DNA from: an uncultured Gemmatimonadota bacterium
GTDB lineage: Bacteria; ARS69
NCBI GenBank assembly: GCA_964571855.1
Contig: CAZNDO010000016.1
Location: 4,601 to 68,600, forward strand
Direction: 5' to 3'
DNA length: 64,000 bases
The position numbers and the translations under genes are program-made. Under the pieces are notes generated by a model. The model ran no database searches. It saw only the letters and a program-made list of their open reading frames with translations, and was not told the origin of the DNA. How positions within the stretch are numbered: position 1 is the first letter of the stretch; each line of letters begins with the position of its first letter. Below are positions 5,843 to 55,129 of this stretch, piece after piece.

Positions 5843-6726
5843 CGCCGGTGTCAGGTCTCACGGAAGGCATCCGCGCCATCGTGCGCGCGCGGGCCGCGGC
5901 GCGCCTGCCGGCGCACGCCGCGCGGCCCTTCCCCGGCTCGCGTTCCGGCGGGGAGTCCGGCTTCCCTTGTGCCGCATCGGGGTCGACCTCCGCGGTCGGC
6001 CCGCCGGTGGCAGGCGCCGAGCCGGGTCCGGACGGTCTCCTGGACGTGCGGCGTCACGCGGGCGAGCTGCTGCCCGGCGTGGATCTCGCCGCGGAGATGC
6101 GGGACGCGCTGGCCACGCTCGGCGCCACGGCCGCCGAGGAGCTGCCGAAGGGACTGCGGCCCGCGCGCGGCGTCGCGCTGGAGGATCTGGCCGTCCTGGA
6201 CCTGGAGACCACCGGTTTCTGGGGATGCCCCGTGCTGCTCGCGGGGCTCCTGCACGTGGAGGACGGGGAGCTGGTCACGCGGCAGATCGTGGCCACGGAC
6301 TACCCGGCGGAGGGCCCGCTGGTCGCGGCCACGCTCGCGGCGCTCGCGCCGCGCCGCCTGCTCGTCACGTTCAACGGCAAGTCCTACGACGTGCCGTGCC
6401 TGCGGGAGCGCTGCGTCGTGCACCGCGTGCCGGACGACGTCACCGCGCGACTCGCGCACGTGGACATCCTGCATCCCGCGCGCCGGCACTGGAAGGGCCG
6501 CTTCGAGAACTGCCGTCTCACCACGCTGGAACGGCGCGTCGTGGGCTTCACGCGCGTGGGCGACGTTCCCAGCCACGAGGTGCCGGAGCGCTTCCACCGC
6601 TTCATCGCCACGCGGGACCCGGCGCAGCTCGCCCCGGTGCTGCACCACGGACGCGTGGACCTGCTCACCACCGCGCGCCTCTTCGCGCGGCTGGCCGCCG
6701 CCGCCCGGGACACGCCGGCGGACTGA
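5839..6726 (+). CDS. RNase-H-like 3'-5' exonuclease (YprB/MrfB-like DEDDh), translationally coupled to the helicase.
   Basis: The GTG start overlaps the helicase stop (GTGA). Motif LAVLDLETTGF is Exo motif I. The second acidic block is LVTFNGKSYDVPCL. A His motif sits near the C-terminus (HRFIATRD...HHGRVD). Confidence 0.7.
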   Translation: MTPVSGLTEGIRAIVRARAAARLPAHAARPFPGSRSGGESGFPCAASGSTSAVGPPVAGAEPGPDGLLDVRRHAGELLPGVDLAAEMRDALATLGATAAEELPKGLRPARGVALEDLAVLDLETTGFWGCPVLLAGLLHVEDGELVTRQIVATDYPAEGPLVAATLAALAPRRLLVTFNGKSYDVPCLRERCVVHRVPDDVTARLAHVDILHPARRHWKGRFENCRLTTLERRVVGFTRVGDVPSHEVPERFHRFIATRDPAQLAPVLHHGRVDLLTTARLFARLAAAARDTPAD

Positions 6727-6812
6727 CCCGCGTTGTCGGATGTCCGGTTTCGCGCCCGTTCGGCGCGTCTTCCTTCCACACGCCCGCAACCCGCGGGAAG
6801 AAGGAGGGGGAC

Positions 6813-7376
6813 ATGCCGTCCGTGAAGGCCCAGTGCATCGTGTGCCGGCGCGCCGCGTTGCTCACCTGCGTCACGAACTTCGCCGGGGTCGGCCCCGGCC
6901 ACTCCGCGCTCGCCCTGGACGGGTACGTATACACGTTCGAGCGCGTCTCCGGCGCGTGGCTCGTGCCCGGCGGGAGCGCCTGGCTGCAGATCCCCGTGAA
7001 GGACTACCTCGCGGCGAACACGCACCGCCCGGTGATCGTCCAGGAGCTGGACGCGGCGCGGGCCGACGCGACCGCCATGCGGGAGTACATCGTGGAGTCG
7101 GATCTGGCCGACGCGGACTACGGCTCGAGCGGCGTCTGCAGCCAGCAGGCGGCCTCCGCGCTGGGCGCCGGACTGGACGCGCGCATCGATCCGATCGGTC
7201 TGAACTCGCCGTACCGCATCTACCGGCACCTCAAGCACACGGGCGCCGTGTCACGCTCGTACCACACGTTCCCGGGCCGGGGTGCGGCGATGGTGGGGAA
7301 GAACGTCCTGCTCGGCTACCTGTACTCGCCGGAGTGCGAGCGGCACGAGAGCGCGCCGCCCATCCTCGCCTGGTAG
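6813..7376 (+). CDS. Hypothetical protein (187 aa) with a conserved His...Cys pair.
   Basis: RBS GAAGGAGGGGG sits 5 nt before the ATG. Coding-like codon usage. Motifs GHSALALDGYVYTF and SSGVCSQQAASALGAG. No family recognised with confidence. Confidence 0.5.
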   Translation: MPSVKAQCIVCRRAALLTCVTNFAGVGPGHSALALDGYVYTFERVSGAWLVPGGSAWLQIPVKDYLAANTHRPVIVQELDAARADATAMREYIVESDLADADYGSSGVCSQQAASALGAGLDARIDPIGLNSPYRIYRHLKHTGAVSRSYHTFPGRGAAMVGKNVLLGYLYSPECERHESAPPILAW

Positions 7377-7388
7377 CGGCGGCGCGCA

Positions 7389-7411
7389 GGGGCGCACAGG
7401 ATGTGCGCCCC
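7389..7411. terminator. Bidirectional hairpin between convergent genes (GGGGCGCACA-gga-TGTGCGCCCC). A second hairpin lies at about 7445-7468.
   Basis: A perfect 10-bp GC-rich stem in the 100-nt gap between the + gene ending at 7376 and pirin ending at 7478. Confidence 0.4.
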
Positions 7412-7477
7412 GCGCCGTCCGGTCCGAGGCAAGGGCCCCGGCCGCCCCGGGAAGTTCGCCACTTCCGGGATGCGACA

Positions 7478-8404
7478 CTACGCGTGCTTCAGGAACGTGC
7501 CGGCCGAGAGCTCCGCCATCGCCTCCTTCAGCTGCTCGCGCGTGTTCATCACGATCGGCCCGTGCCACGCCACCGGCTCGCGCAGCGGCTGCCCGGACAC
7601 CAGCAGGAAGCGGATGCCCTCTTCGCCCGCCTGCACGGTGACCTCGTCGCCGCGGTCGAACAGTACGAGCGAGCGGTTGTCCGCCTCGTGCGCCACCGCC
7701 ACGGGCTCCTCCGTGAGCGCGCGCCCGTCCGCGCCCACCAGTTCCGTCATCGGCGCCGCCGGCGCGGACGCGCCCGCGAACCTCCCGGATCCGGCGAACA
7801 CGTACGCGAACGCGTGCCGCGACGTCTCCACCTTCAGCGTCTTCCGGCGGCCCGCCGGCACCGACACGTCCAGGTAGCTCGGATCCGCCGCGATGCCCGT
7901 GACCGGCCCCCGCACGCCGAACGCGTGCCCGCAGATCACGCGGACGTGCGTGCCGTCGTCCTCGGTCACCTCCGGGATCTCCGCGGAGCCGATGTCCTGG
8001 TACCGCGGCGCCGTCATCTTCAACGACGACGGCAGGTTCGCCCACAGCTGGAAGCCGTGCATCCGCCCGCGATCGTCGCCCTTCGGCATCTCCTGGTGGA
8101 TGATGCCCGAGCCCGCGGTCATCCACTGGATGTCGCCGGGGCCCACGGCCCCCGCGTTGCCCAGGCTGTCCGCGTGGTTCACGGTGCCGGCGAGCACGTA
8201 CGTGATCGTCTCGATCCCGCGGTGCGGATGCCACGGGAACCCCGCCTCGTACTCCGCGGGGCGGTCCCCGCGGAAGTCGTCGAGCAGGAGGAACGGATCG
8301 AACTCGGTGGTGGCGCCGAAGCCGAACGCGCGGCGCAGGTGCACTCCCGCGCCCTCCAGGGTGGGCTTCGCGTGCACGATCTCCTTCACGGGTCGGATGG
8401 ACAT
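7478..8404 (-). CDS. Pirin family protein (bicupin).
   Basis: RBS GGAGG is followed by the ATG start. Metal-binding cupin motifs HPHRGIETITYVLAG and HQEMP..HGFQLW. Length is 308 aa. The upstream part of track ORF 7478..9370 is Arg/Pro-rich non-coding. Confidence 0.85.
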   Translation of the reverse strand: MSIRPVKEIVHAKPTLEGAGVHLRRAFGFGATTEFDPFLLLDDFRGDRPAEYEAGFPWHPHRGIETITYVLAGTVNHADSLGNAGAVGPGDIQWMTAGSGIIHQEMPKGDDRGRMHGFQLWANLPSSLKMTAPRYQDIGSAEIPEVTEDDGTHVRVICGHAFGVRGPVTGIAADPSYLDVSVPAGRRKTLKVETSRHAFAYVFAGSGRFAGASAPAAPMTELVGADGRALTEEPVAVAHEADNRSLVLFDRGDEVTVQAGEEGIRFLLVSGQPLREPVAWHGPIVMNTREQLKEAMAELSAGTFLKHA

Positions 8405-8493
8405 CTCGCCTCCTCGGTGCGGAGCGGGCTTCCCGCCCGGCTCCCTCGCTGCCCCTCGGATGCGTGCCCGCGGCGGCGGGATTCCGCGGCGCG

Positions 8494-9318
8494 TCAGCCC
8501 GCCGCGTGGAACGCCGCGATCCGGTCCCACGCCTCGCGCGCCGTCTCCGCCCAGTGGAACAGCTCCAGGTCCGACGGGGAGATCATCCCCTCCTCCGCGA
8601 GCACGTCGAACCGGACCGCGCGCTCCCAGAATTCGCGCCCGAAGAGGATGACCGGGATGCGCTGCACCTTGCCGGTCTGGATGAGCGTGAGCGCCTCGAA
8701 CAGCTCGTCGCACGTGCCGAAGCCGCCGGGGAAGGCCACCAGCGCCTTCGCCCGCATGAGGAAGTGCATCTTGCGGATCGCGAAGTAGCGGAACTGGAAG
8801 CACAGCTCCGACGTGATGTAGGGGTTCGGGGCCTGCTCGTGCGGGAGCACGATGTTGAGCCCCACGCTCTTCGCGGCCGCGTCGTGCGCGCCGCGGTTCG
8901 CCGCCTCCATGATGCCGGGGCCGCCGCCGGTCACGATGACGTACTCGCAGCGCCCCTCCACCTGGCACGTGGTGGACACGATGCGGCTCAGCTCGCGCGC
9001 CTCGTCGTAGTAGCGCGCGTTGTGCGCGGCGCGGCGCGCCCGGTCCCGGCGCGCGGCCGCCGCGGGGTCGTCCGGCCGCCGCGCGGCGTCCGCCTCCGCC
9101 GCCGCGAGCTCCGCGCGCGCGACCGCCGGCTCCGGGATCCGCGCGCTCCCGAACACCACGATCGTGGACGCGATCCCGTGCTCGCGCTGCACGAGGTCCG
9201 GCTTCTCGAACTCCAGGAGCAGGCGCACGCCGCGCAGTTCGTCGCGGTTCAGGAAGGCGTGGTCCTCGTACGCCTTGACGTAGGAAGGCGAGTCGAGGAG
9301 CGGGTTGCCGGTGGCCAT
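8494..9318 (-). CDS. LOG family protein (TIGR00730 Rossmann fold; cytokinin riboside 5'-monophosphate phosphoribohydrolase-like), long form.
   Basis: Motifs VTGGGPGIMEAANRGA and PGGFGTCDELFEALTLIQTGK, with an N-terminal extension of about 110 aa. Confidence 0.8.
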   Translation of the reverse strand: MATGNPLLDSPSYVKAYEDHAFLNRDELRGVRLLLEFEKPDLVQREHGIASTIVVFGSARIPEPAVARAELAAAEADAARRPDDPAAAARRDRARRAAHNARYYDEARELSRIVSTTCQVEGRCEYVIVTGGGPGIMEAANRGAHDAAAKSVGLNIVLPHEQAPNPYITSELCFQFRYFAIRKMHFLMRAKALVAFPGGFGTCDELFEALTLIQTGKVQRIPVILFGREFWERAVRFDVLAEEGMISPSDLELFHWAETAREAWDRIAAFHAAG

Positions 9319-9479
9319 GGATCCTCCGTGCGAACGGGGCAGCGGTCGTTCGACTTCCGGGACGCGACACTAGCGCGGGGAGGCCGCCCGCTCAATGCGC
9401 CGGCTCCGGCGGCCGTGCTAGAGTCTCGCGCCCCCGGACCGCCGGAAGGCGGCGGCCGGTCTCCCGCACGGAGGCCCCC

Positions 9480-9983
9480 TTGATCAAGATCCCGCAGCCC
9501 GCCATGGCGCTGAACGCCGACGACGTGCCCGGTCCCGACTACAAGATGTGGAACACGCGCAAGGTCACGCGCAAGGACGACGCGCGCTGGCTCATGAAGA
9601 ACGTGGCGTCGGTGGCGCGCTCCACCTCCACCGGCCGCCTCAAGGCGCTCGTGATCAACTGCCATGCCTCGGCCGCCAGCCTCGGGCTCGGCACGGGCAT
9701 CAGCCGCGGCAACACCGAGGTCTTCGACGAGCTCAAGGGACTGGTGGACGAGATCTACATCGTGGCGTGCCAGGTGGCGTACATCAACGGCCCGGGCACC
9801 GGCACGGACGGGAACCTGTTCACGTGCGCCGTCGCGAAGAACTCGGGCGCGAGCGTGTACGCGTCCACCGCGTCGCAGAACACGGGGATCTGGCCGGCGA
9901 TCCCGTTCGGCTACATCGACGGGTTCGAGGGCAAGGTCTACAAGTACAAGCCCGACGGCTCCGTGGAGCTCACCGGCCTTTGA
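9480..9983 (+). CDS. Hypothetical cytoplasmic protein (167 aa) with His/Cys motifs after hydrophobic strands.
   Basis: TTG start with GGAGG 7 nt upstream. No signal peptide. Motifs LKALVINCHAS and IYIVACQVAY. Confidence 0.5.
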   Translation: MIKIPQPAMALNADDVPGPDYKMWNTRKVTRKDDARWLMKNVASVARSTSTGRLKALVINCHASAASLGLGTGISRGNTEVFDELKGLVDEIYIVACQVAYINGPGTGTDGNLFTCAVAKNSGASVYASTASQNTGIWPAIPFGYIDGFEGKVYKYKPDGSVELTGL

Positions 9984-12900
9984 CGCTCCGCCGGTACGAC
10001 CTCGCGTGCACCGTGGATCCGTACCGCGACGGCTGGACCCTGCACGACTTCCTGGTGCACCGGTTCCGGTACCATCCGGAGCCGCTGTGGTCGACGCGTC
10101 TCGCCGAGGGGGCCGTGCTCGTGAACGGCGAGACGGCCGACGGGGCACGCGTCGTGCATGCCGGCGACCGGATCGACTACCACGTGTGGCACGAGGAACC
10201 GCCGGTCGACTTCTCGTACGCCGTGCTGCACGAGGACGACGCCGTGCTGGCGGTGGCCAAGTCCGGCAACCTCCCGGTGCACGCCGGCGGGAAGTACATC
10301 CGGCACACGCTGATCGCGGAGCTCCGTGAGCGTTGGGGGAGCGAGCTGCGCCTCTCGCACCGGCTGGATCGGGAGACGTCGGGGGTCGTGGTGCTCGCGA
10401 AAACGCGCGCCGCGGCCCGCGCCCTGGAGCGGGAGTTCCACGGGCGTCGCGTGGCCAAGACGTACCTGGCGCTGCTCCGCGGCGCCGTGCCGGCGGAGGT
10501 GACGGTGGACGCCCCGATCGGCCGGGAGGATCCGTCGGGCGTGTCCTCCTTCCGGTGTGTCGATCCGGAGCACGGCAAGCCGGCGCGGACCCGGTTCGTG
10601 CCGGTCGCGTCCGGCCCGGGGCCCGCCGCCCCGGCCGCCACGCCGCGCCCGGCCACGCTCGTCCTCGTCATGCCCGAGTCCGGGCGGACCAACCAGATCC
10701 GGGTCCACGCCGCGCACCTGGGCCGTCCGGTCGTCGGGGACAAGATCTACGGCGTCCCGCGTGCGCTCACGGAGCGCTTCGTCACGGCGGGGGAGACGGC
10801 GGAGATCCTGGCCGCCGCCGGTGCGCCGCGCCACCTGCTGCACTGCCTCCGGCTGGCCCTGCGCCACCCGGACGGGCGCCTCCTCGAGCTCACGGCCCCG
10901 CCGCCGCCGGATTTCGCCGATTCCTGGGGAGGCCCCCTGCCCGACTTCGGGGTATCTTTGCCCCGAATAGGCCTTCAAACCCCGCGGGAGCCCCCTCCCG
11001 GTCCACCTCGTCCCGAGGAACTCGCCGTGAAGACGCTGGAGCGGATCGACCCCCGCACCCTGATCGAGGAGATGAGGGCGCAGCACGCGCACTGGGAGAA
11101 GATCAAGGACCTGATCGACTCCATGATCGACATGATGCTGAACTACCGGCAGAGCGGGCACCCCGGCGGTTCCCGCTCCAAGGTCCACCTCCTGGTGACC
11201 ACCCTCCTGGGCGGCATCATGCGCTGGGACATCCGCCACCCGGAGAAGCCCTTCGGCGACCGCTTCATCCTCGTGGCCGGGCACACGGTGCCGCTGGTGT
11301 ACGCCACGCTCACCGTGTTCTGCCACGCCCTGCGGCTCAAGTACGCGAAGACCGGGGATCCGAAGTACCTCATCCCCGATCCCGAGCACCGCTCCATGAT
11401 GTGGGAGGACCTGCTGCGGCTCCGCCGCAACAAGGGGCTCGCGGGCCACGCGGAGATGGAGGGGAAGACCCTCTTCTTCAAGTTCAACACGGGGCCGTCC
11501 GGGCACGGCTCGCCGGCGGCGGCGGGCGAGGCCATGGCGCTCAAGCGCGCGGGCGCGGCCGACGTGCGCGTGTTCGCGTTCGAGGGCGAGGGCGGGCTCA
11601 CCACGGGCGCGTCGCACGAGACACGCAACACGGCGTGGGGGCTGGGTCTCTCGAATCTCGTGTACGTGGTGGACTGGAACGACGAGGGCATCGACCCGCG
11701 CCGCTGCTCCAGCGTGGTGTACGGCGGGCCGCAGGACTGGTTCGGCGCGGCGGGCTGGAAGGTGGTCGGCGCGCAGAGCGGGAGCGACTGGGAGGACGTC
11801 TCGCGCGCGCTCGCCGAGGGCGTGCACGGCGCGAACCCGCTGGCGACGCCGGTGTGCGTGTGGGGCCGCACGCTGAAGGGCCGCGGCTACGCGGTGACCG
11901 GCTACAAGTCGCACGGCACCCCGCTGCCGACGAACAGCGAGGGCTACTGGAAGGGCCGGCAGGAGTTCACCGACAAGCACGGGATCGCGTTCGAGGGGCA
12001 GGGGCAGCCGGCGCCGGCGGATCCGGCGGCGCTGAAGGCGCAGGTGGCCGAGAACCTGCAGCGCGCGCTCTCGCTCTTCGAGAAGGATCCCGCGCTGCTG
12101 GACTACCTGGCGGACCGGCTCGTGGAGCTCGGGGAGTCCGTGCCGGAGCGCGCGGAGGGCGCCGCCTTCGACACGGAGCGGACGCCGTTCAAGGACCCCG
12201 CGTTCTGGGACTTCCGCGCGTACCCGGAGTCGATGTGGGCGAAGCCGGGGGACAAGAAGCCGAACCGCGCCGGACTCTCCGAGTGGGCGGCGTACGTGAA
12301 CTCGCTCGGCCGGAAGAAGTACGGCCGGCCGCTCTTCCTCGCGATGGCGGCGGACCTGGCGGACTCCACGAACATCTCGGGGTTCGCGAAGGGCTTCGGG
12401 GACATGGAAGGCTGGGGCTGGTACGAGCGGGCCACGAACCCGGACGGCGCGCTCCTGCCGCAGCAGATCACCGAGTTCGCCAACTCGGGCGTCACCGTGG
12501 GCCTGGCCTGCGTGAACCTGCACCCGAGACCCTACGAGGAATTCAACGGGTTCTACGGCGCGTGCTCCACCTACGGCTCGTTCAGCTACCTGAAGTACGG
12601 CCCCATGCGGCTGTTCAGCCAGGTGGCGCAGGACTCGGAGATCCGCGTGGGCAAGGTGCTGTGGATCGCCGGGCACTCCGGGCCGGAGACGGCGGAGGAC
12701 TCCCGGACGCACTTCGGCATCTTCGCGCCGGGCGTGACGGATCTCTTCCCGGAGGGTCACGTGTGCAACGTGCACCCGTGGGAGCACAACGAGGTGCCGG
12801 TCGTGCTGGGCGCGGCGTTCGCGTCGGACTTCCCGATCGTGGCGCTGCACCTCACGCGGCCCGCCGTGACGATCCCGGATCGCGCCGCGCTCGGGATGGC

Positions 12901-17086: not shown

Positions 17087-17312
17087 GAATCGGGCCCTGC
17101 AGTGCACGACGTGGGTCGCGATAAAATTGAACCGAATGACTCGCCCAAGGGAGCTCTACATCCGGTTGGGACGTCCACGGCCTTCGCGGCATGAGGACTG
17201 AACGGACCGTGCGAGCACCCACTTGGAGTCCACGGGTCAAGCGTCGCGGCTCCGGACGTCACGGCGGGGCACCGATCCCGAAAGGGCGCGCTCTGCGCGC
17301 CCTTTCTCCGTT
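17087..17312 (+). ncRNA. Candidate small RNA, or a structured leader of the downstream hydrolase (about 225 nt), bounded by the promoter above and a perfect palindromic terminator.
   Basis: Locally reduced GC (gggtcgcgataaaattgaaccgaatgactcgcc). No credible ORF. It ends in the hairpin AAAGGGCGCGC-tct-GCGCGCCCTTT, followed by tctccgtt. Confidence 0.25.
17281..17305 (+). terminator. Perfect 11-bp palindromic hairpin with a 3-nt loop, followed by a T-containing tail.
   Basis: AAAGGGCGCGC tct GCGCGCCCTTT ctccgttcc. It sits 15 nt upstream of the preferred hydrolase start. Confidence 0.45.
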
Positions 17313-17321
17313 CCGGGCGTC

Positions 17322-18101
17322 GTGCTGAACGCGGGCGCGCACGCGCGAGTCGCCGCATGGCGCGAGGCGGAGGCCCGGGACGGCGTGCCCGAGACGGTGC
17401 GATCGTTCGTGCGCGATGCGGCGTCGCCGCGGGGCAGCGCGCTCCTCTTGCACGGCGCCGGCGGCTCGCCCGCGGACTTCCACTTCCTGGCCACGGATCT
17501 CGCCCGGCACGGCATCTCGTCCGTGTGTCCGCTGCTTCCCGGGCACGGGCGGGGGGACGCGGGCCTCGCCGCGCTCCGCTTCGACCCGCTCGCGCGTCGC
17601 GCCCTCGAGGCGTACGACGCGCTCGCGGCGGCCGACCCCGCGCCCAAGCCGTATCTCGTGGGGCAGTCCGTGGGCGCGGTGCTCGGCGCGCACGTCGCCG
17701 CGGAGCGGGCGCCCGCCGGTCTCGTCGCGCTGGCCCCCGCGCTGCGGCCCTACGTGCTGCGCCGCCTGGGCATGCTGCTGCTGGGGTTCCTCGTCCGGCC
17801 GCGCGTCGCCCTGCACACGCTGCGCTGGCAGACCGACGTGCGCCGCGGCATCCGCGCCACCGCGGCTCGCCTCGGCGAGGTGCGTTGCCCCCTGCTCGTT
17901 CTCCACTCGCGCGACGACGACAGCGTCTCGGCGCGCGGGGCGCGCGAACTCCTGGAGGCCGCGGCGTCGGAGCGCAAGGAACTGCGGTGGCTGGACGGGC
18001 AGGGACACGTGCTGTCCACCGCGCCGGACCGGGAGCGGGTGTTCGGACCCGTGCGCGAGTTCCTCGCCGCGTCTACTGAGGCAGGTCGAAGCGGAACGTA
18101 G
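17322..18101 (+). CDS. Alpha/beta hydrolase (esterase/lipase-type serine hydrolase).
   Basis: Motifs LLLHGAGGSPADF and the nucleophile elbow GQSVG. C-terminal LVLHSRDDDSV and GQGHV (Asp/His). The start is uncertain (GTG at 17322 or 17385). The track start at 17223 would include the hairpin. Confidence 0.7.
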   Translation: MLNAGAHARVAAWREAEARDGVPETVRSFVRDAASPRGSALLLHGAGGSPADFHFLATDLARHGISSVCPLLPGHGRGDAGLAALRFDPLARRALEAYDALAAADPAPKPYLVGQSVGAVLGAHVAAERAPAGLVALAPALRPYVLRRLGMLLLGFLVRPRVALHTLRWQTDVRRGIRATAARLGEVRCPLLVLHSRDDDSVSARGARELLEAAASERKELRWLDGQGHVLSTAPDRERVFGPVREFLAASTEAGRSGT

Positions 18102-18846
18102 GATCGACCTCGCGCAGGCGTGTCACCGCCGCCTCGAGGCGGGCGCGCGCCGCCGCCGACGGCTCGTGATGCCAGGACCAGTAGGCGTCCAGGAAGTCGT
18201 CGCGCGCGGTTGCCGCCGCATCCGCGGGAGCGCCGTCGGGCGCGGCGGCCGCATCCTCGGGAGCGACCCCGGCCAGGGCGGCGAAGCTCCCGTCCCGAAG
18301 GCGCTCGTACAGATGGAAGTACTCCCCGCGCATGTGGAACAGGACGTCCACCCAGCGCTCGAAGTCCTCCGAGAGCAGCTGCAGGATGCGGGCGAACACG
18401 CGCGAACCGGCCGGTGCGCGCTCCTGGAACAACGCGGCCCAGCGGTAGTACTCTTTGCCGCGCCCGATCCGGTCCCGGGCACCCGCGTCGAAGTCGCGGC
18501 GACCTTCCCGCGCCACGTACGGCGTGTCCACGAACAGGCCGGTGGAGACGAGCAGGTGATCCGCGCTCGCACGGTACACGCGGCACTTCTCGCGCGGGTC
18601 CCGCACGTCTTGGACCCGGCGGAACACGTCCACGCCGCCCCCGGTCGGGGCGGCGGTGAATCCGGGGGAGCGCACCAGTCCGGCGAGCAGCTCCACGAGG
18701 TAGACGTTCACGTCCTCGTCGTACCGGCCGGTGTTCGACTCGAACCCGCAGTCGATCCGGGACCGGAGCAGCGAGTCCAGCACGAAGTACGTCGTGCGTT
18801 CGCGGGGCTCGCCCGGACGCGAGAGGTCGAAGTACGGGTGGTCCAT
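18073..18846 (-). CDS. Hypothetical protein (257 aa). Its 3' end overlaps the convergent hydrolase by 29 nt.
   Basis: GGGAGG RBS 7 nt before the ATG of MDHPYFDLS... Coding-like composition. No family recognised. Confidence 0.5.
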   Translation of the reverse strand: MDHPYFDLSRPGEPRERTTYFVLDSLLRSRIDCGFESNTGRYDEDVNVYLVELLAGLVRSPGFTAAPTGGGVDVFRRVQDVRDPREKCRVYRASADHLLVSTGLFVDTPYVAREGRRDFDAGARDRIGRGKEYYRWAALFQERAPAGSRVFARILQLLSEDFERWVDVLFHMRGEYFHLYERLRDGSFAALAGVAPEDAAAAPDGAPADAAATARDDFLDAYWSWHHEPSAAARARLEAAVTRLREVDPTFRFDLPQ

Positions 18847-19052
18847 CGCCATCCCTCCCGTGCTCACCGCGCGAACAGCACTGCAAGGTCGGTGCCAGAC
18901 CGTCCGGAGCGCGGGGATTGCGAATCCTGCCCCGGATCAACCAAGAATCGGCCTTCCGGTTCCCCGGACGCCGGGCCCGCAAGGGCCCCCCGGCGGGAAA
19001 CGACCGGCCGGGTGTGGCGTTCTGCACGGGCGCGCGCCTGCGGGAGCGTTTC

Positions 19053-19892
19053 GTGACGGAGTTCACGAGCGGCCCGGGGGCGGTGCGCATCGGCTTCGCG
19101 CAGACCCGGCCGGTCTTCGGGCAGCGGGCGGCGAACCTCGAGGCGGCGGCTCGCCTCGTGGACGCGGCCGTCGCGTTCGACGTCCTCGTGCTTCCGGAGC
19201 TCTTCTCCACGGGGTACCTGTTCCTGTCCCGCGAGGAGGTGGGCGCGGCGGGCGAGGACACGGGCGGGCCCACGGTGACCTTCCTGCGCGACACGGCGCG
19301 GCGGCGCGGCGCCTGGCTCTGCGGGGGTTTCGCGGAACGGGCGGGCCGGGCGCTCTACAACGCGGCCGCCCTGGCCGGCCCCGGCGGCGAGCTGCACGTC
19401 TACCGGAAGGTGCATCTCTTCGATCGCGAGACGGAGGTGTTCGATCCGGGCGACCGGCCGTTCCACGCGATCCCCGTGCGCGCCGGCGGCGTGGACTTCC
19501 GCGCGGGGATGATGATCTGCTTCGACTGGCTCTTCCCCGAGGCCGCGCGCTGTCTCGCGCTCGACGGCGCGGACGTCCTCCTGCACCCGTCCAATCTGGT
19601 GCTGCCGTTCTGCCAGGACGCGATGTCCACGCGCTGCCTGGAGAACCGCGTGTTCGCCGTGACCGCGAACCGCAGCGGCGAGGACGTGCGCGGCGCCGAG
19701 CGCCTGGCATTCACCGGCTCCAGCCAGATCACCGGTCCGCGCGGCGACATCCTCGTGCGCGCGGCCAGCGCCGGCGAGTGCGTGGAGGTCGTGACGATCG
19801 ACCCGCTGCGCGCGCGCGACAAGCGGGTCACCGCGCGCAACGACCTGCTCGGGAGCCGGCGTCCCGACGTGTACGGGGCGCTCGCGGAGTAG
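19053..19892 (+). CDS. Carbon-nitrogen hydrolase family protein (nitrilase/amidase superfamily).
   Basis: The catalytic triad context: E in VLVLPELFSTGY, K in HVYRKVHLFD, and C in MMICFDWLFPE. GTG start at 19053. The track start at 18918 adds an Arg/Pro-rich head. Confidence 0.75.
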   Translation: MTEFTSGPGAVRIGFAQTRPVFGQRAANLEAAARLVDAAVAFDVLVLPELFSTGYLFLSREEVGAAGEDTGGPTVTFLRDTARRRGAWLCGGFAERAGRALYNAAALAGPGGELHVYRKVHLFDRETEVFDPGDRPFHAIPVRAGGVDFRAGMMICFDWLFPEAARCLALDGADVLLHPSNLVLPFCQDAMSTRCLENRVFAVTANRSGEDVRGAERLAFTGSSQITGPRGDILVRAASAGECVEVVTIDPLRARDKRVTARNDLLGSRRPDVYGALAE

Positions 19893-20479
19893 ACGGCGCG
19901 GCAGGCCGACCCCGCGGGGGGCGCGACAGCCAGGGGTCCGCACCCGCCGCGACGTGTCCACGGGCGACGACACCGTGACGCCGGACGTTGTCGCGATCCA
20001 TGTGCTTGGTGCCGGGTCGGTTGCGCGACGGATCGCCCTGCGGGTGTCGCCGCTGGTTGCCGTCTGTCGTCGCGCGCGGATCACGTCGTGCTGCGGAAGA
20101 ACGCGCGAGGGGCGGCGTGGAGCGCGGTTCCGGGCGGATCCGTCGATGTCCGGCGCTTCGGCCCGGTCATTGCAATGGTGCGCGCGCGGGAGATGAGCGG
20201 AAGCGGAAGCGGAAGGGACGAAGGGCGGGCCGCACGCTTCGGCGTCGGGTCCGCGGGGACTGGACCGGCGGCCCGCCCCTTCGTCCGAGTCGCCCCGGGG
20301 GAGGGCGTTGGCCAGGCCCTTCCCCGTTGCAGAGAGCCGGGAGCGTTCCGCGAGGAGATTCCTCGAACCGACAGGCGTAGCCGGGGAGATGCGCCGATCG
20401 GTTGGAACGCTCCCGGCCGTACTTCCCGGGAACACCGCCACCCGCGCCACCACCACCCAGGAGCACGCACACGGCGCAG

Positions 20480-20770
20480 GTCCGCGGGACACTCGGGAAC
20501 CGCCGCGGGGTCGTGGGGCGAGTCACGCGCCGGGCGGGTGTGCGATGCGCGTTCCTCCGTCCCCGACCCTTGCTCCGGCGGCGTCGCGGAGGGGCCGTAG
20601 CCATGGATGGCGGAGGCCCCGGAGCGCCGAGGCCCAGGGCGCGCATGGATGCGCGCCCGCGCCGTCCGGTCCGGAGCAAGGGTCGGGGACGGAGGAACGC
20701 GCATCGCGCACCCGGCCCGGCGCGTGACTCGCCCCGCGACCCCGCGGCGGTTCCCGAATGTCCCGCGGAC
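20480..20770. repeat. Long near-perfect inverted repeat (about 100-bp arms, about 92-bp spacer) abutting the cdaA stop codon. MITE-like or giant 3'-UTR hairpin.
   Basis: Left arm 20480-20578 matches the reverse complement of 20671-20770 at about 96/100 positions. The spacer contains the palindrome GGCGCGCATGGATGCGCGCC. Spurious ORFs on both strands carry mirror-image peptides (GPEQGSGTEERAS). Confidence 0.6.
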
Positions 20771-21538
20771 CTATGCCGCGTGCGCGCGACGTTCGAACGC
20801 CGCGTGCAGCAACGCGCGGAGGGACTCGCGCGTGAGGTTGCGGGTGAGCTGCCCGCCCTTCGCGTGCGACACGGTGCCGGTCTCCTCGGAGACCACCACC
20901 ACGTCGCAGTCGGCCTCCTCGGTGATCCCGATGGCGGCGCGGTGGCGCGTGCCGAGCGCGCGGGAGAGGCGCGGATCCTGCGTGAGGGGGAGGATGCACC
21001 CCGCGGCCACGATCTGGTCGCCCTGCACGATGACGGCGCCGTCGTGCAGGGGGCTGCGAGTCTGGAAGATGGAGATGAGCAGTTCCTCGCTCGGGCGGGC
21101 GTACAGCGGCGTGCCGGTCTCGATCACGCCCTTCAGCCCGGCCTGGCCGAGCACCACGATGAGCGCGCCCGTGCGCGCCTCGGCCAGCTCGAACACCGCG
21201 TTGACCAGGAGGTCCACGGCCTCCTGCGCCTCGCCGCGCGTCACGAACGGCCGCACGATCGGGTGCTGTCCCAGCTTGGACAGCGCGCGGCGGAGCTCCG
21301 GCTGGAACACGATGAGGAAGCCGATGAGCCAGATCGTCTTCAGGCTGCCGATGATCCAGCTCAGCGCGTGCAACCCGAGGAACCCGGACAGGAACCCCGC
21401 GCCGATGATCACGAGGAGTCCGAGGAACATCGTGACGGCGCGCGTGGAGCGGATGAACATGTAGAGCTTGTAGAAGAGGACCGTCACGATCCCCACGTCC
21501 AGGATGTCCAGGACCCAGTGGATGCCGAGCAGGCTCAC
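20771..21538 (-). CDS. cdaA: Diadenylate cyclase (c-di-AMP synthase) CdaA.
   Basis: N-terminal transmembrane helices (ILDVGIVTVLFYKLYMFIRSTRA..). DisA_N motifs DGAVIVQGDQIVAAGCILP and TRHRAAIGITEEADCDVVVVSEETG. The GTG start overlaps the folP stop. Confidence 0.8.
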   Translation of the reverse strand: MSLLGIHWVLDILDVGIVTVLFYKLYMFIRSTRAVTMFLGLLVIIGAGFLSGFLGLHALSWIIGSLKTIWLIGFLIVFQPELRRALSKLGQHPIVRPFVTRGEAQEAVDLLVNAVFELAEARTGALIVVLGQAGLKGVIETGTPLYARPSEELLISIFQTRSPLHDGAVIVQGDQIVAAGCILPLTQDPRLSRALGTRHRAAIGITEEADCDVVVVSEETGTVSHAKGGQLTRNLTRESLRALLHAAFERRAHAA

Positions 21539-52416: not shown

Positions 52417-53734
52417 GCGCCCCGGCGTCCCCGGGACGGCGCGGCCGCGGCGCGCTCCTGTTCGCCTTCCTGGCGATCACCGTGGCCGTGATCAACCTGG
52501 CCGGCTGGTTCGTGGTGGACCGCGTCTCCAGGGCCTTGGAGGCCGAGACCGCCCTTCGGCTCGTGGCGGTCGCGTCCGCGGCGATCGGGGAGGCCACCGA
52601 GGAGCTCCTGCTCCGCCCCGAAGTGGCCGGCGACGCCTTCGTCACGGCCACGCTCCGCGGCGCCGCCGCCCGCAACGACCTGGATGACGTGCTGCTGTAC
52701 GACGCGTCGGGCGCGCTGCTGTTCGACCTGGAAGGCGCGGACCTCGGTCCCGCGAACCCCTACGCCGCGGTGCACGCGCCGTCCTTCGCCGCCGCCGCCG
52801 CGGGCTCGGCCGCGGCGTCGCCGGCTCGCGACGTCTCCGGACTCGCGTTCCGCTCCGCGTACGCGCCCGTGCACGACGCGGACGGCACCGTCGGGGCCGT
52901 GCTCGGCGTGGCCGCGGGCGGCGGGTTCCTCGCCCGGCTGCCCGCGCTGCGGCGCACGCTGTGGCTCGTGTCCGCCGGCTCGGCCGCGCTCGTGGCCGCG
53001 CTGGGCGCCCTGCTCTTCGGGATGGACCGCCGGCTCGCGGCCACGGAACGCGCGCTCGCGCGCTCGGAGACGCTGGGCGCGATGGGGATGATGGCGGCCG
53101 GCGTGGCGCACGAGGTCCGCAACCCGCTCGCGATCATCGCGGGCACGGCGGAGCGGCTGCGCAAGAGGTACGGCGCCGGCGCGGACGATCCCCTGTTCGG
53201 GTTCATTCCCGAGGAGGTGGACCGCCTGAACACCATCCTCGAGGGCTACCTGCGCTTCGCCCGCGACGAGCCGCTGCGCCTCGCGGACGTGGATCTGGCG
53301 CGCGTGGTGGACCGCTCGCTCGAGCTCGTGGCGCAGGAGTGGGCGCCGCGCGGCGTCGCCTTCGAGCGCCGCGGCGCCGCCGGCCCGCTCGCCGTGTCCG
53401 GCGACCCGCAGCGTCTCATGCAGGTCCTGCTGAACGTGCTGATCAACGCGGCCCAGGCCATGCCCGGCGGCGGCGCCGTGGGGGTGGAGTTGGCCCGCGA
53501 GGGCGCCGCCGTCCTCGTGTGCGTGACGGACGCGGGGACCGGCTTCGACCCGCGCGCGCTGGCCGGCGCGTTCCAGCCCTTCTTCACCACGAAGGAGCAC
53601 GGGTCGGGACTGGGACTGGCCATGGCGAAGCGGATCATGGAAGGTCATGGCGGGTCGATCGAGGTGGCGAACCGGCCCGAGGGCGGCGCGCGCGTGACGC
53701 TGCGCCTGCCGGCCCGCGCGCAGGGAGGGGAGTG

Positions 53735-53735
<1 letters not shown>
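52413..53735 (+). CDS. Sensor histidine kinase (two transmembrane helices plus a periplasmic sensor domain).
   Basis: GTGA overlap with the upstream stop. H-box GVAHEVRNPL. N, G1 and G2 boxes (LLNVLINAAQA, TDAGTGF, GSGLGLA). Confidence 0.8.

Positions 53736-55129
<1,394 letters not shown>

Follow-up and report, generated by a model that had tools for sequence, protein, structure and literature searches.

What is encoded in the 878-bp spacer (19893-20770) between a C-N hydrolase gene and the diadenylate cyclase gene cdaA in a 64,000-nucleotide stretch of Gemmatimonadota DNA (hereafter the window, with a composition of about 73% G+C)? Gemmatimonadota are abundant soil bacteria in which, to our knowledge, almost no regulatory RNAs have been characterised, and full-text literature searches returned neither a paper describing a regulatory RNA in this phylum nor a description of the RNA element reported here. 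The initial annotation regarded the spacer as a single structured, non-coding block that follows cdaA in the place where other phyla carry cdaR or glmM. Our analysis agrees that the spacer is non-coding and structured, finds part of it to be conserved and hence something other than junk, and divides it into two separate entities: with a probability of roughly 60%, it consists of a sigma-54-dependent small RNA and an unrelated, lineage-specific palindrome. The sequences that frame these entities are as follows.

18918-19892, + strand: C-N hydrolase (nitrilase-superfamily) gene; Pfam CN_hydrolase at E 2e-38, NCBIfam nitrilase at 238 bits, under the cut-off
19893-20159, no strand assigned: upstream spacer, poorly conserved in alignments, which could hold enhancer sites
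20771-21538, - strand: cdaA (diadenylate cyclase); Pfam DAC and CdaA_N, TIGR00159 at 233 bits against a cut-off of 189

The stop codon of the C-N hydrolase gene ends at 19892 on the + strand and that of cdaA occupies 20771-20773 on the - strand, so that the gene pair is convergent and the spacer is flanked by two 3' ends. The closest named relatives of the cdaA protein are found in Gemmatimonadota metagenome-assembled genomes (73-81% identity), and in each relative examined cdaA closes a tilS-hpt-ftsH-folP-cdaA cluster. For the C-N hydrolase, the exact 324-amino-acid product is on record in a public collection, where a 279-amino-acid version was looked up and is not on record; comparison of the start candidates with those of relatives makes 19053 the likely true start. 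Every feature listed in the initial annotation was recovered to within 1-2 nt, and the spacer is indeed free of protein genes: the two flanking genes have a GC3 of ~0.97, against an even ~0.75 whichever phase of the spacer is read. Folded as a whole, the 5' part of the spacer (19893-20462) has a z of about -3, modestly above shuffles of 73% G+C composition.

Relatives with a cdaA 69-91% identical to that of the window have the same convergent gene pair, with spacers of 431-565 bp. These spacers are otherwise unalignable, and three blocks within them can be aligned, reading best on the window's + strand: a 15-nt motif, a hairpin and a three-way junction. The locus that comprises them (20160-20421, +) is present in every syntenic relative in this range of identity and is represented by 14 distinct sequences. 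The initial annotation left open whether the block would prove conserved among orthologous loci or a strain-specific insertion, and the comparison divides it, with 20160-20421 conserved and a 325-bp palindrome downstream absent from relatives, part of the latter recurring elsewhere in the window. The elements of the RNA locus and the sequence that joins it to the palindrome are listed here.

20160-20174, + strand: -24/-12 motif GGCCCGGTCATTGCA (GGCCCG-GTCA-TTGCA), the sole match in 64 kb, with 0.14 expected
20196-20215, + strand: microsatellite (AGCGGA)x3.3 in the predicted 5' leader, not conserved in relatives
20217-20285, + strand: accessory hairpin domain, from folding and alignment
20297-20325, + strand: hairpin m2, GGGGAGGGC-GNUGGCCAG-GCCCUUCCCC, from the alignment and a covariance model
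20336-20417, + strand: three-way junction, from the covariance model
20336-20350 paired with 20403-20417, + strand: junction stem P1
20352-20364, + strand: junction hairpin P2, the GAGGA...TCCTC palindrome GAGGAgatTCCTC
20367-20402, + strand: junction hairpin P3, with apical loop GCCGGGGAGA at 20380-20389
20418-20462, + strand: C-rich linker from the RNA core to the palindrome, read from the sequence; no alignment to relatives

The stem of hairpin m2 is 10 bp long and includes two G·U pairs that never vary; it is capped by a 9-nt loop of the form G-N-UGGCCA-G, which is invariant among the 13 members having the hairpin at that position. Similarly, the apical loop of P3 is nearly invariant, its first base alone varying, in the related locus L123. 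What had been described as a 13-bp inverted repeat enclosing a short palindrome is a 14-nt perfect repeat (20336-20349 / 20404-20417; z -6.7 and -5.9) contained in P1, and the enclosed palindrome is P2.

A covariance model built from seven sequences, and applied to syntenic loci and metagenome contigs, recovers 14 distinct members, scoring the window at 136.6 bits and the 13 other distinct sequences at 41-132 bits; it gave no match in a locus with a 54%-identical cdaA and without the C-N hydrolase neighbour. A search of metagenomes with the two-block pattern returned 102 stretches, five of which are true members. None of the families in Rfam 15, with 6S, the ydaO c-di-AMP riboswitch, GlmY/GlmZ and Qrr among them, matches the element: across 19600-21100 in E-value mode the best score was 18 bits, with an E of 2.8 or worse and from microRNA models, and in gathering mode nothing fell on the RNA element in the window or in seven related loci. 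The family is previously undescribed and has no match in Rfam 15.

Of the cells in the alignment of 14 sequences, 96.5% are standard pairs, versus at most 53.5% when the partners are slid, double changes are present in 23 of the 41 pairs overall and in 12 of the 15 pairs of P1, and 0 of 500 shuffles reach any observed pairing measure; the alignment was fitted to the model and its sequences are related, coming from one clade, so that these pair counts lean towards structure and are supportive, not a formal test. The strand of the RNA is fixed as the window's + strand by the imbalance of 52 G·U versus 3 A·C cells, pairing on the other strand dropping to 84.6%. In L123, the most divergent member, the outer stem and the small hairpin have had nearly all their bases replaced and remain paired. 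Inserts of variable length separate the RNA modules among relatives, which bears on the non-coding status of the locus. Collectively, these data make it very probable that 20160-20421 encodes a conserved structured RNA on the + strand.

Two members depart from the common arrangement of modules: in L017 (6840-7106) and in L123 (2790-3043), on the - strand, both modules occur in reversed order, the junction followed by the hairpin, with other hairpins between them.

Three roles suggested by short motifs were examined and rejected. P2 (GAGGAAAGUCC) was considered as an RNase P CR-I motif, an idea at odds with its being a hairpin complete in itself and with the lack of a match to any RNase P model. 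A CsrA-type decoy presenting GGA in its loops was set aside as the GGA motifs lie outside the conserved loops. Pairing of P1 with the ribosome-binding site of the C-N hydrolase gene is present in the window and not conserved in relatives, and was attributed to chance.

The 15-nt motif at the head of the locus takes the form GG[C/T]CCG-N4-TTGC[A/T/G] among members, with GGCCCC in the divergent L123. It lies upstream of the core in 13 of the 13 members searched and additionally in L007 and L084, at distances of 31-209 nt from the core, and it still precedes the core in the permuted-order members L017 and L123. Where the leader is shortest, the start deduced from the motif falls 7-16 nt ahead of the first hairpin. 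In the window, GG and GC are exactly 10 nt apart with TTGCA at -12, a spacing and a -12 half that fit the sigma-54 consensus TGGCACG-N4-TTGCW. The -24 half deviates, reading GGCCCG where the sigma-54 consensus has TGGCAC; members of the family follow YGG(C/T)CCG, and the window has two mismatches to TGGCACG. From this consensus match, sigma-54 dependence of the RNA is a well-founded reading and probably the right one. The window also encodes an NtrC-family response regulator (52961-55129, +; Response_reg, Sigma54_activat, AAA_lid_14 and HTH_8), whose listed open reading frame is over-extended at its 5' end. A search for a shared activator-binding 8-mer upstream of the motif in the members returned none, with generic GC-rich words only.

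The conserved structures could instead form the 3'UTR or terminator of the mRNA for the C-N hydrolase and perhaps be processed to a 3'-derived RNA, in which case the GG-N10-GC motif would lie within the RNA or be coincidental. The element shares the strand of the C-N hydrolase gene and lies 270-400 nt downstream of it, it keeps to that gene where cdaA has been separated from it (in L016, described below), and the outcome of the enhancer motif search also agrees with such an origin. However, the stretch from the stop codon to the motif is unconserved, yet no member examined lacks the 15-nt motif (one deviates, by one base), and a motif that always comes first, even in permuted order, while its spacing to the core ranges over 31-209 nt, behaves like a promoter and unlike a structural element. 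We regard a 3'UTR origin as unlikely, though it is, with a convergent antisense regulator of cdaA, one of the two main rivals of the favoured reading.

A further sigma-54-type sequence, of canonical form, is present on the other side of the C-N hydrolase gene.

18897-18882, - strand: canonical sigma-54 site TGGCACCGACCTTGCA (TGGCACC-N4-TTGCA), 15 nt upstream of a hypothetical gene at 18073-18867

This site is ~1.3 kb from the RNA motif, and an equivalent, TGGCA(C/T)-N5-TTGC(A/T/G), is found in eight related loci (L006, L007, L008, L015, L016, L017, L121 and L123). The hypothetical gene is conserved and has no Pfam or NCBIfam match. With the canonical site on one side and the RNA motif on the other, two sigma-54-type motifs bracket the C-N hydrolase gene. 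In L006 (~12175-12190), a TTGCTAGAAT-like motif (TGnTAnAAT, resembling an extended -10 element) was observed ~50 nt upstream of the sigma-54 site of the hypothetical gene, and it recurs at equivalent sites in L007, L008, L015, L016, L121 and L123, and is not obvious in the window.

Under the favoured reading, the small-RNA gene at ~20160-20421 would have a sigma-54-type promoter of its own and be transcribed in the direction of the cdaA 3' end; we infer the use of this promoter and the ends of the RNA, with a transcription start placed by the motif at ~20185 and a predicted length of about 235 nt in the window genome. The whole predicted RNA (20185-20425) folds with a z of -5.5. Neither an intrinsic terminator, as a GC-rich hairpin with a U tract (0 sites on either strand of 19700-21000), nor a sigma-70 promoter in a scan of the locus was detected.

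The predicted leader holds two elements that the initial annotation had listed and that were both borne out, the microsatellite and a 16-bp inverted repeat, the latter measuring 16/17 nt and folding with z values of -3.4 (+) and -2.8 (-). The apical motif of this accessory hairpin, CGCUUCGGCGUCGGGUCCGCGGGG, occurs both in the window and in L012, and L015 and L016 have related versions of it; the outer stems are wholly different in sequence among relatives and still pair. An apical sequence that is partly common, on outer stems that differ yet pair, marks the accessory hairpin as an optional domain of the same RNA. The span from the predicted start to the core ranges from about 25 to about 230 nt in relatives, and the long leaders fold into one long hairpin.

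How such an RNA would act can be framed from its conserved parts. Most likely, the RNA has a regulatory role and would be switched on by a sigma-54 enhancer-binding protein, and the invariant UGGCCA loop together with the nearly invariant GCCGGGGAGA loop may serve as contact surfaces for a protein, for an mRNA or for each other. Action in trans through these two loops is our tentative proposal, to which we give somewhat less than even odds; invariant loops give no covariation, so that the role assigned to them is a guess.

The position of the RNA relative to cdaA has a bearing on this question. From the end of the core to the cdaA stop codon there are 3-100 nt in the members whose downstream flank was read, except L016, and about 350 nt in the window, where the palindrome intervenes. 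As no U-tract terminator is predicted, antisense read-through into cdaA is possible. In L016, a gene for a TonB-dependent receptor is inserted after cdaA, and the RNA is found beside the C-N hydrolase gene, ~340 nt upstream of the receptor gene and on the same strand. The RNA staying with the C-N hydrolase gene shows that it is not tied to cdaA. This arrangement, and the fact that the RNA lies on the strand opposite to cdaA and points towards it, speak against the earlier description of a block that follows cdaA as a substitute for its cdaR/glmM partners.

The source annotation of L016 places a 257-amino-acid open reading frame without a Pfam match over the RNA (9520-10293, +), and this frame is probably spurious; the receptor gene (6791-9514, -) lies downstream of the RNA. 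As a practical lesson, gene callers may set spurious reading frames over such an RNA.

A core that points at the cdaA stop codon from 3-100 nt away in all flank-read members but L016, with no predicted terminator, would also suit an RNA that acts in cis. In such a scheme, sigma-54-driven convergent transcription would lower expression of cdaA-folP-ftsH by antisense pairing or transcriptional interference, and in this lineage the palindrome would insulate the two units. But in L016 what lies ahead of the RNA is a TonB-dependent receptor gene encoded on the same strand, and plain antisense transcription has no need of conserved structured modules with invariant loops. Moreover, the common gene order may be mere inheritance within one clade. 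We find action in cis quite unlikely, and continue to prefer a small RNA with a promoter of its own that may act in trans.

The most far-reaching version of this proposal would be that the RNA represents a new class of sigma-54-controlled regulator in this Gemmatimonadota clade, coupling an enhancer-binding-protein signal (e.g., nitrogen status) to c-di-AMP synthesis through the convergent cdaA operon, with the two invariant loops, one of them the self-complementary UGGCCA, as its functional contacts. We consider this a long shot.

The arrangement has counterparts among known small RNAs. GlmY is expressed from a sigma-54 promoter (PMC3162934). GlmY/GlmZ of Enterobacteriaceae and Qrr of Vibrio resemble the window RNA in having a -24/-12 motif directly upstream of a short multi-hairpin RNA with conserved loops, and in belonging to genomes that encode NtrC-type activators. 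They differ from it in sequence, structure and phylum, with no Rfam family scoring above noise, and in their -24 half-site, which is TGGCAC in these systems and GGCCCG here. The element also has much in common with the comparative-genomics motifs that Rfam classes as 'Gene; sRNA', namely covarying hairpins, fixed gene neighbours, a narrow clade and no known function, although it lies outside Rfam 15 and carries its modules in two orders. The c-di-AMP (ydaO/kimA) riboswitch, a structured RNA linked to c-di-AMP biology, was considered since cdaA adjoins the locus; however, its family model gives no match at E values up to 10, and the RNA here is convergent with cdaA, unlike an element placed upstream of a transporter gene. 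The locus offers a concrete, testable RNA gene with a predicted promoter, a covariation-backed structure, two invariant loops and a fixed address beside the c-di-AMP synthase gene.

The second entity in the spacer is a palindrome, of which the initial annotation had recognised a 100-bp inverted repeat. The repeat is real and its extent was set too small, the whole being a near-complete palindrome of 325 bp that includes a small module with another copy in the window.

20463-20787, no strand assigned: lineage-specific 325-bp palindrome, centred on 20624/20625
20463-20578, no strand assigned: left arm
20579-20669, no strand assigned: degenerate centre
20670-20787, no strand assigned: right arm
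20637-20682, + strand: hairpin followed by CCGCGCCGTCCGGTCCGGAGCAAGGG, a ~50-nt module in the palindrome centre
7385-7435, + strand: second copy of the module, hairpin plus CCGCGCCGTCCGGTCCGRRGCAAGGG (blastn, 82% identity over 62 nt, E 6e-9)

The core arms (20481-20578 / 20670-20770) are identical at 95 of 99 positions, and the central ~90 nt are about 61% symmetric. A 361-nt fold reaches -331 and -340 kcal/mol (z -21.6 and -24.2), where shuffled sequences give about -201 and -207. None of the six relatives with aligned spacers has the palindrome. In the window its right arm extends over the final 17 nt of cdaA, and the outermost 18 nt of the left arm repeat this end of the gene in inverted form, with matches at 14 of 18 positions. 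The cdaA C-terminus ERRAHAA is common to relatives at least 95% identical and is homologous to ERRAAAA and ERRVHAP in the palindrome-free L012 and L014, from which it follows that the outer 17 nt of the right arm are native cdaA sequence.

Transposon insertion leaves direct duplications, not inverted ones. No direct target-site duplication flanks the palindrome, its flanks being an inverted copy of the cdaA 3' end, a configuration that fits inverted duplication (e.g., by template switching) and argues against a transposon. A multi-copy mobile element may nevertheless be at the root of the palindrome. No second copy of the arms is present in the 64-kb window, a 21-mer of the arm searched against a genome-contig collection (the source genome not included) gave three unrelated chance matches, and a protein search with a 207-amino-acid pseudo-ORF across the palindrome, for reading frames over other copies, returned no matches.

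These features also bear on whether the whole spacer is functionless, repeat-derived junk made of REP- or MITE-like insertions. In favour of this idea, relatives lack the palindrome, and its central module turns up once more between another pair of convergent genes. The idea applies to 20463-20787 only, however, and is refuted for 20160-20421, which is conserved with compensatory changes in 14 distinct sequences; even for the palindrome, neither the window nor any retrieved locus contains the arms a second time, and a target-site duplication is missing. As an account of the whole spacer we judge it very unlikely.

The palindrome does share properties with REP/BIME units, MITEs and long inverted duplications, in its position between convergent genes, its absence from relatives, its overlap with a stop codon, its tendency to break short-read assemblies, and its possession of a hairpin module that recurs in a convergent spacer. 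It differs from REP units in being far longer, at 325 bp with arms of roughly 115 bp, and from MITE-type elements in having no direct target duplication and an outer arm that is an inverted copy of the last codons of the neighbouring gene.

Chimeric reads are known to yield long perfect inverted repeats, and short-read assemblies fail at this locus, so that a fold-back chimera has to be weighed. Two contigs from different sequencing runs (L001 and L002) nevertheless include the right arm, without a difference from the window in one case and with three differences in the other, and both stop (at ~20678 of the window) exactly 31 nt past the last base that distinguishes the arms. An assembly graph with k=31 breaks in this way only if both arms are present; breaks of this k=31 type one k-mer beyond the last distinguishing base show that the palindrome is real and present in several samples. 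Moreover, arms that differ at 4 of 99 positions around an asymmetric centre are unlike a fold-back chimera. We consider an assembly artefact extremely improbable.

Many of the closest relatives of cdaA are on contigs of 1-3 kb, and the two examined end inside the palindrome, indicating that the locus breaks short-read assemblies. This is a second practical lesson, in that a 325-bp palindrome can interrupt such assemblies at the very locus of interest.

The most likely origin of the palindrome, judged from sequence comparison, is a recent inverted duplication of the cdaA 3' end and the adjoining downstream DNA, which would have included a small repeated hairpin module of the same genome. As such it would offer a clean natural example of an inverted duplication copying the end of a gene. 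In its effects this lineage-specific rearrangement is most likely neutral or of slight use, and we speculate that its two central hairpins may terminate both convergent transcripts.

The two copies of the module in the palindrome centre have an exact 26-mer in common, where none is expected by chance. The copy at 7385-7435 is located in a 100-bp spacer between the convergent reading frames 5967-7376 (+) and 7478-9370 (-). It sits immediately behind a stop codon, and compensating changes are seen in its hairpin. No matches to the module were found in viral contigs. The two copies point to a small family of terminator-like repeats in the genome, one of which would have been caught up in the duplication.

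Upstream of the locus, a candidate 6S RNA was observed at 17091-17274 (+), scoring 42.4 bits (E 1e-6) against an Rfam gathering score of 46.4. It is syntenic with above-threshold 6S matches in L015 (10040-10221), L016, L017 and L008. The listed alpha/beta-hydrolase reading frame (17223-18101, with a TTG start) overlaps this candidate, and its true start is probably further downstream.
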